Translations under genes and position numbers: made by a program
Assembly: GCA_017440805.1 (NCBI GenBank)
Contig: JAFSGN010000022.1
Coordinates: forward strand, 280,298-344,297
Origin: Clostridia bacterium
GTDB lineage: Bacteria; Bacillota; Clostridia; Oscillospirales; SIG627
DNA: 64,000 nt
Direction of reading: 5' to 3'
Shown here: piece by piece, positions 7,550-57,765 of the stretch
How positions within the stretch are numbered: position 1 is the first letter of the stretch
How the letters are laid out: the number at the start of each line of letters is the position of its first letter
Notes under the pieces: model-generated
Databases searched by the model: none
Told to the model about the DNA's origin: nothing
What the model saw: only the letters and a program-made list of their open reading frames with translations

Positions 7550-7579
7550 GAATAATATAATCACCTTGCGGCAATAATT
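7550..7579 (+). promoter_or_regulatory. Putative sigF promoter of spoIIR
   Basis: GAATA-N15-GGCAATAATT matches the sigF consensus G(Y/A)ATA-N15-GGnrAnAnT. spoIIR is an established sigF target. Confidence 0.65.
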
Positions 7580-7598
7580 GCTGCGAGGTGATTTTTTT
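7560..7598 (+). terminator. Intrinsic terminator after purC whose 3' arm contains the spoIIR SD
   Basis: ATCACCTTGCGGCAA / TTGCTGCGAGGTGAT stem of about 15 bp with 2 G-U pairs, followed by T7 (7592-7598). Confidence 0.8.
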
Positions 7599-8202
7599 GA
7601 ACATATTCAAGCACTTAAATAAAGATAAATACTTAATTCTTATATTTTCATTTTTATTGTCCTGCGGTATTGTTGCGTTTTTTCCGTGCAGTCAGGACAC
7701 ATCCGTATACCGCGACACTATCCGTATTCATGTTATAGCCAATTCAGACTCAATTCCCGACCAAAATTTAAAACTAATTGTTCGTGACCGGGTTATTGAA
7801 ACAGCAAATACACTTATTAAAAATTGTAATTCTAAAAATGAGGCGGTTGATATTCTTTCAAAAAACATCACTATTCTGGAAAAAACCGCATATGATGCAC
7901 AAAAAAAGTACGGATATCTCTATAATATAACTGCAACGATATCCCCTGAATACTACCCTACACGAAATTATGAAAATTTCAGATTGCCCGAAGGAAAATA
8001 TACTTCACTGAAAATAAATATAGGTAAGGCACAAGGGCAGAATTGGTGGTGTGTGATTTATCCGTCTTTTTGTCTTAAGCCGGCAGTTAAAAACATTCCA
8101 AATATTGCTGACACATCGCCAAATGTAAGATATAAAATCAAATTCAAAATATTGGAATGGTTTTCAAAAATAAGTCAGGTTGCAGAATCATCTGCAACCT
8201 GA
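7597..8202 (+). CDS. spoIIR: Stage II sporulation protein R
   Basis: IRIHVIANSDS..DQ.LKL.VRD, YPTR.Y....LP.G.Y..L.I.IG.A.GQNWWCV.YP. TTG 7597 chosen because SD GAGGTG is at 7585-7590 (the track starts at GTG 7588). Confidence 0.92.
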   Translation: MNIFKHLNKDKYLILIFSFLLSCGIVAFFPCSQDTSVYRDTIRIHVIANSDSIPDQNLKLIVRDRVIETANTLIKNCNSKNEAVDILSKNITILEKTAYDAQKKYGYLYNITATISPEYYPTRNYENFRLPEGKYTSLKINIGKAQGQNWWCVIYPSFCLKPAVKNIPNIADTSPNVRYKIKFKILEWFSKISQVAESSAT

Positions 8203-8208
8203 CTTATT
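8169..8208. terminator. Bidirectional terminator between convergent spoIIR and rluB
   Basis: Perfect 18-bp inverted repeat AATAAGTCAGGTTGCAGA-atca-TCTGCAACCTGACTTATT. Confidence 0.8.
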
Positions 8209-8917
8209 ATATTGATTTAAGGTAATCAATCTGTTTCTTATCCAGTTCTAAAATTGCTCCTGCATGTAATCCGCCGAGAGAAATTTTTCCTATTGATATT
8301 CTCTTGAGTCGCATAACATCCAATTCACAAAGTTCGCACATCTTGCGTATTTGTCTGTTTCTTCCCTCTTTCAGAGCAAATCTCAATACTGTTCCGTCTT
8401 CAACAATCTTCTCTATGCAAACCTGAACCGGCTTTATGGTATAGCCATCCAACACCAATGGACTCCGCAGTTTTTCAAGTTGTTCTTCGGTGACTCTGCC
8501 TCTGATTTTGCACAGATAAATCTTTTCCACTTCTCCCGAAGGATGCATCAGTCTGTTTGCAACCTCACCATCGTTAGTCAATATGACCAGGCCTTCGCTG
8601 TTAAGGTCAAGTCTGCCTACCGGATAAACTCTTTCGGGTATATCCCGTACAAGGTCTGCTATACACTTTCTGCCTCTTTCGTCGGACATTGTGGTTACAT
8701 ATCCCCTAGGTTTATTGAGGATATAATACTTTTTCTGGTCGCTTGTTCTTTCGATTATTTTTCCGTTATATACGACGACATCGCTGTCATCAACCTTTTG
8801 CCCTAATTCACAAGGCTTATTGTTTACTGTTATATTACCTTTTTTTATTTCTTCCTCTGCCTTGCGACGCGACATAACTCCGCAATCAGACAGATATTTT
8901 TGAAGTCTTACTTTCAT
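8207..8917 (-). CDS. rluB: 23S rRNA pseudouridine synthase, RsuA/RluB family
   Basis: S4 domain RLQKYL...G..SRRKAE, NKPRG, VGRLD, EGRNRQIRKM. Start set at MKVRLQK. Confidence 0.9.
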   Translation of the reverse strand: MKVRLQKYLSDCGVMSRRKAEEEIKKGNITVNNKPCELGQKVDDSDVVVYNGKIIERTSDQKKYYILNKPRGYVTTMSDERGRKCIADLVRDIPERVYPVGRLDLNSEGLVILTNDGEVANRLMHPSGEVEKIYLCKIRGRVTEEQLEKLRSPLVLDGYTIKPVQVCIEKIVEDGTVLRFALKEGRNRQIRKMCELCELDVMRLKRISIGKISLGGLHAGAILELDKKQIDYLKSI

Positions 8918-8919
8918 TT

Positions 8920-54893: not shown

Positions 54894-54922
54894 GAAACAT
54901 AACAGACTTATGGGGATTTAAT

Positions 54923-56899
54923 ATGGATAATATACTTTCTAAAATACAGGAACTGCGGAATTTACTCAATTACCACAGTAAAAAATACTATGTTGACGAT
55001 ATGCCGGAAATATCGGATTTTGAGTATGATAATTTATTTCATCAGCTAAAAAGACTTGAGGAGGAATACCCTCAGTTTGACAGCCCCTCATCCCCTACCA
55101 AGCGTGTGGGCGGTATTGCGCTTGACAAATTTGAAAAGGTAACACACCGCAAACCTATGTTAAGCCTTTCAAATGTTTTTTCGTATGATGAGTTGAGAGA
55201 TTTTGTTTTAAAACTTCATAACACTTCCTGCGAACTTGTTGTTGAGTACAAAATTGACGGTCTTTCAGTGCTTTTGGAATACGAAAATGGTATATTTGTT
55301 CGCGGTTCAACCAGAGGCGACGGTGTTGTCGGCGAGAATATAACAGAAAATCTGAAAACAATTCCTTCCATTCCACTGGAATTAACCCGACCCATCCCCT
55401 ATCTTGAAGTTCGCGGCGAAGTATTTATGCCTAAAAAGGTCTTTGAGTCGCTTAATGCACACAGGGAATTGAACGGTGAGGCACTTTTCGCAAATCCCAG
55501 GAACGCTGCTGCAGGTTCATTGCGTCAGTTAGATTCAAAAATCACTGCACAACGCAAACTTGACATTTTTGTGTTTAATGTTGAATATTGCGAAGGCATT
55601 GATTTGTTTTCACATACCCAGTCCTTGGAATTGCTTAAGGAACTCGGTTTTAAAGTTTCGCCGGATTATCGTGTTTTCACTTCATATGATGATATTTATT
55701 CCGACATATTGAACCGTGGAGAAAATCGCGACAATTTATTATTTGATATAGACGGCGCAGTAATCAAAGTAAATGACTTCGGTCTGCGTTCTCAACTTGG
55801 CGAACTTACAAACACTCCAAAATGGGCAACGGCATATAAATATCCGCCAGAAGAGAAGGAAACACTGCTTTCTAACATTGCAGTTCAGGTAGGACGGACA
55901 GGCGTTCTAACTCCTCAGGCAATTCTGGAGCCTGTACGACTTGCAGGTACAACAGTTTCCCGTGCAACACTTCATAACAAAGATTTTATTTCCGAAAAAG
56001 ACATTCGTATAGGCGATGTAGTGCGGGTAAGAAAGGCCGGAGAGATTATTCCGGAGGTGCTTTCTGTTAATTTATCAAAGCGACCTTCGTGCTCTGTCCC
56101 ATTTGAATTTCCGTCAGTGTGTCCGTCTTGCAATGAGCCGGTGTTCTCCGACCCTGATGTTGCTCAAATCCGCTGTACAAACACCTCCTGCCCTGCTCAA
56201 CTCATACGAAATATAATTCATTTTGCCTCCCGTGATGCTATGAACATAGATGGTCTTGGAGAAGCAATTGTGATGTCTCTTTGTGAAAACAAAATCATTT
56301 CCGATATTACGGATTTGTATACACTTGATGAAAATGTACTGTCAAATCTTGAAAGATTCGGAAAAAAATCCGCTCAAAATCTTTTAAGTGCTATAGAAAA
56401 ATCAAAGCAGAACTGTCTTTCGAAACTTCTTTTCGGACTGGGTATCCGTCAGGTAGGCGAAAAAGCGGCGGCGGTTCTTGCAAAACATTTTGAAACATTG
56501 GAAAAAATAAGCACTGCCACCATAGAGCAACTTACCGCCATTGATGATATTGGAGAAATCACAGCACAAAATATAGTGAACTACTTTAAGGTTGAAAGCA
56601 ATATAAATATTATAAATAAAATCACCCTCCTTGGTATAAATACCAGATTTATCAATACAGCACAGTCAACTGTGCTTGATGGTAAAACTTTTGTTGTGAC
56701 GGGAACTCTGCCCTCCCTCAAGCGTTCAGAAGCGGAAAAACTGATTGAAGACAACGGCGGAAAAGTCTCTTCAAGCGTTTCAAAAAACACCGACTTTGTT
56801 CTGTGCGGTGAAAACGCAGGTTCCAAACTTGAGAAAGCCACCAAACTGGGTATTCCGGTTATAGACGAGAGTGATTTCCGAAAAATGATAGGAGAATAA
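54923..56899 (+). CDS. ligA: NAD-dependent DNA ligase
   Basis: EYKIDG adenylation motif, [18 protein letters not shown]4 zinc finger, HhH repeats, BRCT domain. Confidence 0.98.
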
Positions 56900-56902
56900 C
56901 AG

Positions 56903-57712
56903 ATGTTAGGATTTATTGGCGTGGGAAATATGGCATCCGCCATTATTACGGGTATTTTAAATAAAGGATTATATTCAGAAAAAGATATTAAAATATATGA
57001 CAAGGATACCGACAAATACAAAAAGTTTAATTTGACACCTTCGGAGAGTATAAAAGATTTGTGTATCGAAAGCGACATGATTTTCCTCTGTGTAAAGCCT
57101 CAAATATACACCGATGTACTTGAGGAAATATCTTGTTCCGTTCCGAAAGAACTTATTGAAAAAAAGGTTTTTATTTCAATTGCGGCAGGTATATCAACTT
57201 CATTTATATGCAGAAAACTTTCGGTAAAAACCGCGGTAATTCGAGTAATGCCCAATACTCCCCTGCTTATAGGTGAAGGAGCAAGTGCAATTTGCAAAAA
57301 TGAATTTGCAAATGACGACACTTTTTCAAATGTTGCGGATATTTTTTCTTCACTTGGCGTATGCAAAAAACTTGAAGAAGATACGATGAACAAAATAATT
57401 GCCGTAAACGGTTCTTCTCCCGCTTATGTGTACCTGTTGGCAAAAGCAATGTGCAACGGTGCACTGGCGCAGGGAATTCAGGATGACATACTTCCTTTGA
57501 TTATACAGACAATAATCGGCTCGGCAAAAATGATGGAACAAAGTTCACTTACACCCGACCAACTCATTAAAATGGTAGCATCTCCCAACGGTACAACTCT
57601 TGCTGCTCTGCAGAGTTTTGAAGACGATGATTTTTGCGGTATTGTAGCCCGTGCAATGCAACAATGTACAAATCGTGCAGAGGAAATTGCCGAGGAGATA
57701 GAAAACAACTGA
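56903..57712 (+). CDS. proC: Pyrroline-5-carboxylate reductase
   Basis: GFIG.GNM, VKPQ, SIAAG, RVMPN.P, GSSPAY, V.SP.GTT. Confidence 0.95.
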   Translation: MLGFIGVGNMASAIITGILNKGLYSEKDIKIYDKDTDKYKKFNLTPSESIKDLCIESDMIFLCVKPQIYTDVLEEISCSVPKELIEKKVFISIAAGISTSFICRKLSVKTAVIRVMPNTPLLIGEGASAICKNEFANDDTFSNVADIFSSLGVCKKLEEDTMNKIIAVNGSSPAYVYLLAKAMCNGALAQGIQDDILPLIIQTIIGSAKMMEQSSLTPDQLIKMVASPNGTTLAALQSFEDDDFCGIVARAMQQCTNRAEEIAEEIENN

Positions 57713-57717
57713 TTTTT

Positions 57718-57765
57718 GAATACATAACATCACACTGACATATTATTGAATGGGTGATGATATGT
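57718..57765 (+). promoter_or_regulatory. Putative sigE promoter with SD/start-sequestering hairpin
   Basis: GAATA-N16-CATATTAT (57718-57746). Spacer ACATAACATCAC pairs 11 of 12 with GTGATGATATGT (57754-57765). Confidence 0.6.

Follow-up and report, generated by a model that had tools for sequence, protein, structure and literature searches.

Sequestration of a Shine-Dalgarno (SD) sequence is a known mechanism, represented by genes e, soc and 49 of phage T4 and by sigG of B. subtilis. In T4, the long early transcripts of genes e (lysozyme), soc, 49 and I-TevI contain a helix by which the SD, the AUG or both are sequestered, and this arrangement is conserved among related phages (as described in PMC3014915). 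In B. subtilis, a large hairpin is present in read-through transcripts of sigG (spoIIIG) and cannot form in those initiated at the sigF/sigG-dependent sigG promoter (as described in PMC5942855). Both had been named as precedents in the initial annotation and are borne out by these sources. Related arrangements include riboswitch and attenuator platforms, where an upstream anti-SD strand sequesters the SD, sometimes coupled to a terminator, and C. difficile spoIIR, whose mapped start belongs to a sigF-type promoter, GAATAAA ... GGACATAATT, directly 3′ of a terminator-like hairpin (PMC7438776).

Here we describe three sporulation-gene starts, in a small gut Clostridia genome (1.58 Mb), where an RNA hairpin buries the SD. 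All lie in the window, the 64,000-nt stretch of DNA that was analysed, and concern spoIIR, a dacB-like gene and a candidate spoIIM. In contrast to T4, this is a cellular element predicted from its sequence to use sporulation sigma factors; the gated genes would be those of a signalling protein and of cell-wall enzymes of a developmental programme, and the spoIIR helix also resembles an intrinsic terminator of the upstream gene. While sigG is a single locus of Bacilli at which a sigma-factor gene is gated, the genes concerned here are spoIIR, dacB and spoIIM, across roughly half of the more than 100 species considered from one Clostridia order; the anti-SD comes from the promoter spacer or from the −10 itself and one class includes a U-tract. 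C. difficile spoIIR also differs, since terminator and promoter are separate there, the leader is 28 nt long and the SD lies outside the terminator (PMC7438776). Unlike riboswitches and attenuators, the present elements involve no ligand sensing or alternative fold and the position of the transcription start would decide the outcome; an Rfam search of the window found no family. The scale on which such locks are used and their fusion with terminators appear to be new.

Hairpins at three sporulation-gene starts

Genes, their start codons and their SDs were called with a simple in-house program that used an assumed anti-SD string in place of one read from the 16S rRNA of this genome. The cost of opening the SD is an ensemble value in a −80..+15 context, calculated for 1421 genes (median 3.2, 99th percentile 11.3 kcal/mol). 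A cost of at least 10 kcal/mol defines a lock, and 33 of the 1421 genes reach it.

The spoIIR gene (7597..8202, + strand; PF09551, 1.1e-41; TIGR02837, 4.7e-41) has a likely TTG start located 69 nt from the stop codon of a co-directional upstream neighbour (6844..7527, +), called only purC-like because its TIGR00081 match (3.6e-34) scores 118.5 bits where the cut-off is 189.9. Between them is a sigF-type promoter with a −35 GAATA (7550..7554), a 15-nt spacer and a −10, GGCAATAAT (7570..7578), which has the form seen in GTATA-N15-GTCAATAAT, the promoter mapped for spoIIQ in C. difficile. The promoter spacer holds the 5′ arm of the hairpin with the anti-SD (7559..7574; 16 pairs, 7 of them G-C). 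This is followed by a loop of 3 nt (7575..7577) and by the 3′ arm (7578..7593), which includes the SD GAGGTGA (7585-7591), and the −10 covers the loop and the upper end of the 5′ arm. A tract of seven T (7592..7598) is placed to act as terminator tail and as SD-to-start spacer at once, and hairpin and U-tract together are terminator-like by a site scan. Over 83 nt the fold reaches −29.6 kcal/mol (z = −8.05; 0/200 shuffles as good) and the SD opening cost is 18.6 kcal/mol, rank 3 of 1421. In two same-genus orthologues of spoIIR the promoter is kept and there is no hairpin (costs 2.2 and 3.6).

The dacB-like D-Ala-D-Ala carboxypeptidase gene (8920..10077, − strand, ATG at 10077; PF00768, 9e-59, and PBP5_C) lies downstream of a co-directional sporulation gene of the ytfJ/GerW family (10131..10556, −; TIGR02874, 4.8e-31; PF09579). 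A sigE-type −35 GAATA (10129..10125) precedes a 13-pair hairpin whose 5′ arm, in the promoter spacer, carries the anti-SD (10121..10109), whose loop holds a −10-like AATATGAT (10108..10101) and whose 3′ arm (10097..10085) contains the SD AAAGGTGG (10094-10087). It folds with −13.6 kcal/mol (z = −3.43; 2/200 shuffles as good) and the SD costs 10.7 kcal/mol to open (rank 25 of 1421). An rluB-type pseudouridine synthase gene (8207..8917, −) follows 2 nt 3′ of dacB and has an open SD (cost 4.5). The cluster scpB-unknown207-ytfJ-dacB-rluB is conserved, including the place of ytfJ upstream of dacB, and rluB keeps its downstream place across most orthologue loci.

The third hairpin lies between proC (56903..57712, + strand; TIGR00112, 4e-71), a co-directional upstream neighbour kept in 3/3 genus members, and a gene for a 183-aa membrane protein with a GTG start (57764..58315, +). 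Here, a sigE-type −35 GAATA (57718..57722) is followed by the 5′ arm in the promoter spacer (57721..57737; anti-SD CATCAC at 57728-57733), by the −10 CATATTAT (57739..57746), whose CATA..AT is kept in 3/3 genus members, and by the 3′ arm (57751..57766). The latter includes the SD GGGTGATG (57752-57759), which pairs with 57728-57737, and the GTG at 57764, which is paired as well. The fold has −16.5 kcal/mol (z = −3.48; 0/200 shuffles as good), opening the SD costs 11.8 kcal/mol (rank 14 of 1421) and the corresponding costs in two other genus members are 9.8 and 9.2. The label SpoIIM-like given to the protein in the initial annotation finds a match at the level of structure (an Atlas SpoIIM-domain cluster, TM 0.70) and none to a family of Pfam or NCBIfam; a search for PF01944 in the rest of the genome found no match. 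It is probably a divergent SpoIIM, and we treat this structural match as a lead only. A DUF624 membrane protein gene (58344..59318, +), present in 3/3 genus members, begins 28 nt further on; its SD is open (cost 0.3).

The hairpins described in the initial annotation are therefore real at all three loci and bury the SD. The pairing is destroyed by shuffling of the −35/−10 spacer: the native cost was reached in 0/300, 0/300 and 6/300 cases for loci 1 to 3 (spoIIR, dacB and the candidate spoIIM). The interpretation that accompanied these observations is partly supported. An upstream gene is co-directional in each case, as had been stated; it was also said to be a housekeeping gene, which does not apply to dacB with its ytfJ/GerW neighbour.

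Promoter motifs and predicted starts

The promoter motifs are conserved. Across orthologues the motif upstream of spoIIR is G[A/T]ATA-N14-16-GTCAATAAT-like, and that upstream of dacB and of the third gene is GAATA-N16-CATAnAnT. Sporulation promoters had been proposed at each locus. In this genome the motif score is 20.5 for spoIIR (at least 20 in 3 of the 1421 genes and in no shuffled upstream region) and 17.0 at locus 3 (at least 17 in 15 genes versus 3 shuffled regions), in agreement with the proposal; the −10 of dacB is a weak match with a score of 15.0, a level attained in 145 real upstream regions and in 133 shuffled ones.

These sigF-like and sigE-like motifs share their form and start offset with C. 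difficile promoters whose mapped starts lie 7 nt (spoIIQ) or 6 nt (spoIID/spoIIID) past the −10 (PMC7438776, supplementary file 1). With the offset of 7 nt borrowed from spoIIQ, the sigF start of spoIIR is predicted at about 7585; those of dacB and of the candidate spoIIM are predicted at about 10095 and 57752. Each would coincide approximately with the first base of the SD (7585, 10094 and 57752), as anticipated in the initial annotation. Since the motifs lie within the 5′ arm or the loop, the predicted developmental transcript would not contain the 5′ arm and its SD would be open: in the predicted short transcripts the opening cost drops to 0.3, 1.0 and 0.3 kcal/mol. Their leaders would be 12-18 nt long, below the 20-40 nt usual in C. 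difficile. Among relatives, the predicted start is 3′ of the 5′ arm in 14/14 spoIIR locks and in 12/15 dacB locks (inside the arm in 2, unclear in 1).

Recurrence, upstream orientation and two hairpin types

Orthologues were surveyed in Oscillospiraceae-type gut Clostridia, a single order. The lock is present at spoIIR in 14/30 relatives and 39/80 further species, at dacB-like genes in 15/30 orthologues and at canonical spoIIM in 5/8 genes, compared to 7/160 flanking control genes from the same loci; the SD-burying hairpin is thus kept far oftener than in neighbouring genes, although Fisher P values overstate such contrasts, as related genomes do not count as independent samples. When all sequence 5′ of the SD was shuffled, at least 10 kcal/mol was reached in only 26/400, 4/150 and 11/150. 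Repeated use across the sporulation regulon, as originally claimed, holds for orthologues of spoIIR, dacB and spoIIM. The lock is not regulon-wide, with just 6/30 spoIIP genes (some probably start-call errors), and it is absent from about half of the orthologues. In this genome it accompanies no more than roughly one quarter to one third of such promoter motifs ahead of genes, and it is also found at some non-sporulation genes.

Swapping in the 5′ part of another orthologue lowers the native median opening cost of 15-18 kcal/mol to about 7, showing that the hairpin arms are genome-specific; at locus 3 the swap makes little difference (9.4 vs 9.8 for the native 5′ part). Column-wise covariation, suggested as a check in the initial annotation, was not seen: 14 dacB leaders gave no consensus fold and 0/7 pairs at locus 3 changed on both sides.

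The dependence on a co-directional neighbour proposed at the outset is seen for spoIIR, where locks occur in 37/52 loci with a co-directional upstream gene and in 1/26 with a divergent one, a contrast to which the same caution about Fisher P values applies. The hairpins are of two types, the terminator-like type of spoIIR with its U-tract and that of dacB and locus 3, without a U-tract and ahead of housekeeping genes with an open SD. The last 8 nt ahead of the start contain on average 4.6 and 5.5 U in spoIIR locks, versus 2.9 and 2.5 where there is no lock; dacB has 2.6 U with a lock and 2.3 without (genome mean, 2.5). The dacB and locus 3 hairpins were not flagged in a terminator scan. With its 16-pair stem, 3-nt loop and 7 U the first hairpin is close to an intrinsic (Rho-independent) terminator, as are the U-rich spoIIR locks of relatives. 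It differs from one in that the 3′ arm includes the SD of the next gene, the U-tract forms the SD-to-start spacer and the 5′ arm and loop accommodate a promoter.

Probable insulation against read-through and the alternatives

We consider it probable that the hairpins are read-through insulators with a built-in developmental promoter, and infer the following course of transcription and translation at the three loci. Read-through RNA from the co-directional upstream gene would carry both arms and its SD would be hidden, together with the start codon at locus 3. RNA polymerase with a sporulation sigma factor would initiate within the hairpin (sigF-type for spoIIR, sigE-type for dacB and the SpoIIM-like gene), giving an mRNA without the 5′ arm and with a free SD near its 5′ end. 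Because a U-tract follows the spoIIR stem, this element probably ends transcription from upstream too, and would therefore be terminator and lock in one. The dacB and SpoIIM-like hairpins have no U-tract and adjoin housekeeping-type genes with an open SD, so that they would mainly silence translation while transcription proceeds to the downstream gene. Such a lock, if real, would make it safe for sporulation genes to be placed within or downstream of everyday operons.

A less likely reading, to which we nevertheless give some weight, is that the hairpins are 3′-end elements of the upstream genes, either intrinsic terminators or stabilising stem-loops, and that pairing of the SD is itself unselected. 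A compact genome of 1.58 Mb would leave no room to prevent a 3′-end hairpin from overlapping the next promoter and SD. The textbook terminator of locus 1 (16 pairs, then 7 U) and the U-rich spoIIR locks are as this reading would have it, and across the genome locks are most frequent where the co-directional gap measures 45-80 nt (9/109). Moreover, 17/17 spoIIR loci with an upstream gap of at most 60 nt are locked; gaps this short leave terminator, promoter and SD no choice but to overlap, so compaction by itself could explain why the SD is paired there. In C. difficile and in one genus of relatives a separate terminator lies just 5′ of spoIIR instead. This reading accounts poorly for dacB and locus 3, where the unflagged hairpins lack a U-tract and housekeeping genes follow 2 and 28 nt on, and where, at locus 3, the pairing also takes in the start codon. 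Among genes of this genome with co-directional gaps of the same size (45-130 nt), those without a sporulation-type promoter motif seldom have a buried SD, with locks in 8/191 versus 5/15 where the motif is present. Also, in many species the SD departs from its usual form so as to match the −10, as where GGACGG pairs with CCGTCC.

SpoIIR is a signalling protein and is probably required in small amounts. This would suit an alternative that we regard as unlikely, in which the true start lies 5′ of the arm and the hairpin belongs to the leader of the sporulation mRNA itself, where it damps translation or stabilises the message. The B. subtilis sigG leader hairpin, which damps translation 2-4-fold, is an example; by comparison its stability is only −6.2 kcal/mol (both as given in PMC5942855), whereas costs of 15-20 kcal/mol, together with the U-tract at spoIIR, would leave the gene's own message blocked or terminated. 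The sole conserved promoter-like motifs sit inside the hairpins or on the 5′ arms, and of the 22 spoIIR locks from the further species whose motif is clear, none has its predicted start upstream of the 5′ arm (19 are 3′ of the arm, 2 inside it and 1 unclassified). Dependence on upstream orientation is also left unexplained. The inverted repeats overlap the spacer and −10, a common place for repressor sites, from which it could be argued that they are DNA operators for a dimeric regulator of the sporulation promoters, with RNA folding irrelevant. This is very improbable given that stem sequences vary between genomes while complementarity is kept, that the SD always forms one arm, that loops span 3 to more than 20 nt and that stems contain G-U pairs, functional in RNA only. 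Finally, three sites were chosen by eye among the approximately 55 genes of the window, and complementarity arising by chance in AT-rich intergenic DNA might have been noticed post hoc. We give almost no credence to this explanation, which the controls contradict: the sites rank 3, 14 and 25 of 1421, shuffles do not reproduce them and the lock recurs in independent species samples.

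Hairpins that bury the Shine-Dalgarno sequence

Three leaders in the window form a hairpin with the Shine-Dalgarno sequence (SD) of the following gene in its 3′ arm. The first (locus 1) is that of spoIIR (7597-8202, + strand), recognised by PF09551 with 142.7 bits (cut-off 25) and scoring slightly below the cut-off of TIGR02837 (140.2 against 151.9 bits). It is adjoined on its 5′ side by a purC-like gene (6844-7527, + strand), which is found upstream of spoIIR in no relative and whose 227-aa product scores 118.5 bits against a cut-off of 189.9. An 18-pair hairpin at 8169-8208, between the convergent spoIIR and rluB genes, resembles a bidirectional terminator closing both units. 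The second leader (locus 2) precedes a dacB-like carboxypeptidase gene (8920-10077, − strand) within a tight, co-directional cluster on that strand, which comprises genes for an M50 peptidase, scpA, scpB, an unknown 207-aa protein, ytfJ/GerW, the dacB-like gene itself and, as its 3′ neighbour, an rluB-type pseudouridine synthase gene. The 207-aa protein (gene at 10561-11184) is without a family match, and the position of its gene between scpB and ytfJ is kept in many relatives; the SD of this gene is moderately paired (8.0 kcal/mol to open, rank 88 of 1421). The third leader (locus 3) belongs to an unannotated gene for a 183-aa membrane protein (57764-58315, + strand), with ligA and proC upstream and a DUF624 gene downstream.

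The probability that the SD is paired with upstream sequence is 0.97, 0.98 and 0.72 at loci 1, 2 and 3, and the folds have z-scores of −8.05, −3.43 and −3.48 relative to dinucleotide shuffles. For comparison with the rest of the genome (1.58 Mb in 22 contigs), the opening cost, that is the ensemble free energy needed to force the SD open, was computed for each gene in a context of −80 to +15, using 1427 genes from a simple caller based on codon bias and the SD; genes and starts are home-made calls, and SDs were located with an assumed anti-SD string rather than one read from this genome. Costs have a median of 3.2 kcal/mol and a 99th percentile of 11.3, and loci 1, 2 and 3, with 18.6, 10.7 and 11.8 kcal/mol, rank 3, 25 and 14 of 1421. 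All three are locks as we use the term here, a cost of at least 10 kcal/mol. When the 15–16 nt between the putative −35 and −10 elements were shuffled, the native value was reached in 0/300, 0/300 and 6/300 cases. Folds, genome ranks and spacer shuffles together confirm the initial annotation in its observation of an SD-burying hairpin at each of the three loci. Similar hairpins also occur in this genome before desulfoferrodoxin, hexapeptide transferase, secY and corA genes. A terminator scan flagged locus 1 as terminator-like (16 pairs, 7 of them G-C, with the tail TTTTTGAACA) and did not flag loci 2 and 3, and Rfam gave no match at gathering score anywhere in the window.

Recurrence in relatives and the upstream gene

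The same genes were collected from 40 related genomes, with relationships between genus and order level and protein identities of 30–70%. Locks were found at 14 of 30 spoIIR loci and 15 of 30 dacB-like loci, and in 7 of 160 other genes of the same fetched loci, which served as flanking controls. A second sample, independent of the first and comprising 80 spoIIR loci from named public genomes, was retrieved with a seven-sequence alignment and drawn mostly from Oscillospiraceae, Acutalibacteraceae, Ruminococcus and unclassified Clostridia gut MAGs; it contained 39 locks. The lock is absent from about half of the orthologues. The comparison sporulation gene spoIIP has a lock at only six of its 30 loci (median cost 4.3 kcal/mol), and several of these resemble start-call errors.

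Shuffling the whole region 5′ of the SD in the orthologues reduced the locks to 26/400, 4/150 and 11/150. Swapping the 5′ parts among lock-bearing orthologues lowered the median cost from 15–18 to about 7 kcal/mol, which indicates that the arms fit their own partners. Column-wise covariation did not emerge: RNAalifold gave no consensus structure for 14 dacB leaders, because their stems lie in different registers, and for the three locus-3 leaders it gave seven pairs, none changed on both sides, with one-sided changes only.

At spoIIR, the presence of the lock follows the arrangement of the upstream gene, although the contrasts of orientation and gap are indicative rather than exact since related genomes are not independent. 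In the second sample, 37 of 52 loci whose upstream gene is co-directional have a lock, against 1 of 26 whose upstream gene is divergent (two loci were unscorable); both samples pooled give 49/74 against 2/30. By upstream gap, the second sample has locks at 17/17 loci with at most 60 nt and 19/27 with 61–80 nt. One spoIIR orthologue of the same genus with a divergent upstream gene keeps the promoter and its spacing and has no hairpin. The upstream neighbour of spoIIR in relatives is usually a GHMP kinase gene of ispE size, and can also be a dihydrofolate reductase or M14 peptidase gene. Within the genome carrying the window, lock frequency peaks at co-directional gaps of 45–80 nt (9/109), and at gaps of 45–130 nt locks are present in 5 of 15 genes with a sigE- or sigF-like motif against 8 of 191 without.

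At locus 3, both other members of the genus keep the hairpin (9.8 and 9.2 kcal/mol); by sequence, the protein itself is found in 3 of 41 genomes, all within the genus. The label ‘spoIIM-like’ given to this gene in the initial annotation is a lead from structure and not from family profiles. The Atlas model of the protein aligns with a SpoIIM-domain cluster (TM 0.70 over 175 residues) and one of its feature-space neighbour clusters in the Atlas has PF01944, the SpoIIM family, in 15% of members. Searched against PF01944, the protein and both its genus orthologues gave no match even at E = 10, and the protein gave none at this threshold among Pfam and NCBIfam families in general. PF01944 was detected in none of the 25 genomes of this family, including the present one, in which SpoIIP is found; it is detected in 7 of 16 further families from the same order, whose canonical SpoIIM genes carry a lock in five of eight cases. 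SpoIIM in this family appears to have diverged past profile detection, and our best guess, which we hold to be appreciably more probable than its alternative, is that the modelled locus-3 protein is a divergent SpoIIM.

Promoter motifs and predicted transcription starts

The genome scan combined promoter motifs with Pfam on gene subsets, and its lenient motif set includes clear false positives such as tRNA synthetases. The spoIIR leaders have in common G[A/T]ATA, a spacer of 14–16 nt and a GTCAATAAT-like −10, and the dacB and locus-3 leaders GAATA, 16 nt and CATAnAnT. At locus 1 the sigF-type motif scores 20.5, a score of at least 20 being attained by 3 of 1421 genes and by no shuffled region; its form matches the mapped C. 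difficile spoIIQ promoter, and sigF dependence is predicted. The sigE-type motif (nnATA, 15–17 nt, CATAnAnT) scores 17.0 at locus 3 (at least 17 in 15 genes against three shuffled regions) and a weak 15.0 at locus 2 (at least 15.0 in 145 genes against 133 shuffled regions). In this genome the motifs of loci 1 and 3 are distinctive whereas the −10 of locus 2 is not; the dacB orthologues have clearer copies of the motif.

One C. difficile study (PMC7438776) maps the spoIIQ start to the seventh base after GTATA-N15-GTCAATAAT and the spoIID and spoIIID starts to the sixth base after TTATA-N16-CATATAnT; the spoIIR promoter there is of sigF type, with a 28-nt leader and, upstream, a terminator separate from it. 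With these C. difficile offsets the motifs place the predicted starts at about 7585, 10095 and 57752 and give predicted leaders of 12–18 nt. The short RNAs beginning at these predicted starts would leave the SD accessible, with opening costs of 0.3, 1.0 and 0.3 kcal/mol at loci 1, 2 and 3. All 14 spoIIR locks of the first sample have their predicted start downstream of the 5′ arm; of the 15 dacB locks, 12 have it downstream of the arm and two within the arm, and one is unclear. For the 22 spoIIR locks of the second sample with a clear motif, the predicted start falls downstream of the arm in 19, within it in two and upstream of it in none, and one lock is unclassified. In many species the spoIIR −10 itself (CCGTCCATACT) forms the 5′ arm and is paired with an SD of the GGACGG form. 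A measure based on enclosure of the predicted start by at least six base pairs was dropped, this being true at 67–75% of arbitrary positions in control genes.

Two types of element and their proposed function

In B. subtilis, SpoIIR triggers pro-sigE activation, and dacB and spoIIM are active on the cell wall; any expression of spoIIR, dacB or spoIIM that leaks from upstream housekeeping transcription should be harmful. In the more tentative general rule taken up below, the spacer of a cell-type-specific promoter, or the −10 itself, would double as the anti-SD strand, as where CCGTCC of a sigF −10 would pair with an SD reshaped to GGACGG. A single element of 35–45 nt could then act as terminator or translational lock for incoming transcription and also as the launch site of the developmental mRNA.

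Two types of element can be distinguished. U residues were counted in the 8 nt before the start codon; a count taken after the outermost pair of the MFE structure was set aside because A-U pairing extended into the U-tract and distorted it. The spoIIR locks have 4.6 and 5.5 U per 8 nt against 2.9 and 2.5 in spoIIR non-locks and a genome average of 2.5, whereas dacB shows no enrichment (2.6 in locks against 2.3). On its 3′ side spoIIR faces a convergent gene and a bidirectional terminator-like hairpin. The rluB gene begins 2 nt after dacB, in an order kept in most relatives, and the DUF624 gene lies 28 nt after the locus-3 gene, both with an open SD (costs of 4.5 and 0.3 kcal/mol). The U counts, the downstream neighbours and the open SDs of the latter point to this two-type reading, in which the spoIIR element would be a terminator that also hides the SD, while the dacB and locus-3 elements would be translational locks with transcription running on to the downstream gene.

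The initial annotation had proposed that read-through mRNA carrying both arms is translationally silent or terminated and that the sporulation-sigma transcript, which lacks the 5′ arm, is translated. A read-through lock with a built-in sporulation promoter is still the best-supported reading and is probably correct, with starts, read-through, termination and translation all inferred, but it needs corrections: the lock is, for instance, not general, as spoIIP illustrates. On this reading the locks would be a clade-wide form of a known mechanism that appears to be new. The same logic is described for the T4 genes e, soc, 49 and I-TevI (PMC3014915) and for B. subtilis sigG, with its large read-through hairpin ahead of the gene (PMC5942855). 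The likeness to T4 gene e and sigG resides in a helix that pairs the SD with an upstream strand, found at all three loci. A full-text literature search brought up no account of locks of this kind for spoIIR, dacB or spoIIM, nor of a clade-wide spread, which is not proof of absence.

If this reading is true, a mechanism known at single loci in phage T4 and B. subtilis would extend to a recurring design across a clade, and sporulation promoters could be annotated, and insulation predicted, by a specific and testable rule in the many uncultured gut spore-formers. A start-site-dependent lock would also explain how reduced genomes pack such genes 50–70 nt behind everyday genes or inside operons. 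That Oscillospiraceae-type Clostridia use a general ‘promoter-in-hairpin’ rule, with genes gated by the position of transcription start, is a more tentative proposal, to which we give somewhat less than even weight; under it, signalling and cell-wall-active sporulation genes (spoIIR, dacB and spoIIM) could sit inside housekeeping operons, or lie among forespore and mother-cell genes, and yet not be expressed leakily.

Comparable arrangements were seen elsewhere in the genome carrying the window (G000). A DUF3792 membrane-protein gene (G000 C16:21689-22072) has, as in spoIIR, an SD-bearing stem followed by a U-run and a TTG start; the design is kept in all three genus members with different stem sequences (17.2, 21.1 and 23.5 kcal/mol), and the gene was not found outside the genus. 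The strongest SD-burying hairpin of the genome (21.5 kcal/mol) precedes the desulfoferrodoxin gene (G000 C22:83043-83420) and encloses a sigF-like motif, GAATA-N14-GTTTAAAAT. Behind a perfect sigF-type promoter (GTATA-N15-GTCAATAAT), a gene for a 100-aa protein without known family (G000 C22:32059-32361) has its SD locked at 18.3 kcal/mol; it may be a forespore gene that has so far escaped recognition. At G000 C22:138555-139887, a YabP-family gene and a divergent gene for an unknown 342-aa protein are separated by 61 nt, and in this common intergenic region the SDs of both are sequestered (12.6 and 10.9 kcal/mol). The SD of the hexapeptide-repeat transferase gene (G000 C16:180842-181498) is locked by long-range pairing at 21.3 kcal/mol, with TATAAT-like sequence in the loop, and the same architecture may also be used with housekeeping promoters. 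Finally, the Vut_1 gene (vitamin or queuosine-precursor uptake; G000 C16:70417-71256) has a highly structured leader with a buried SD (17.8 kcal/mol), which could be a riboswitch.
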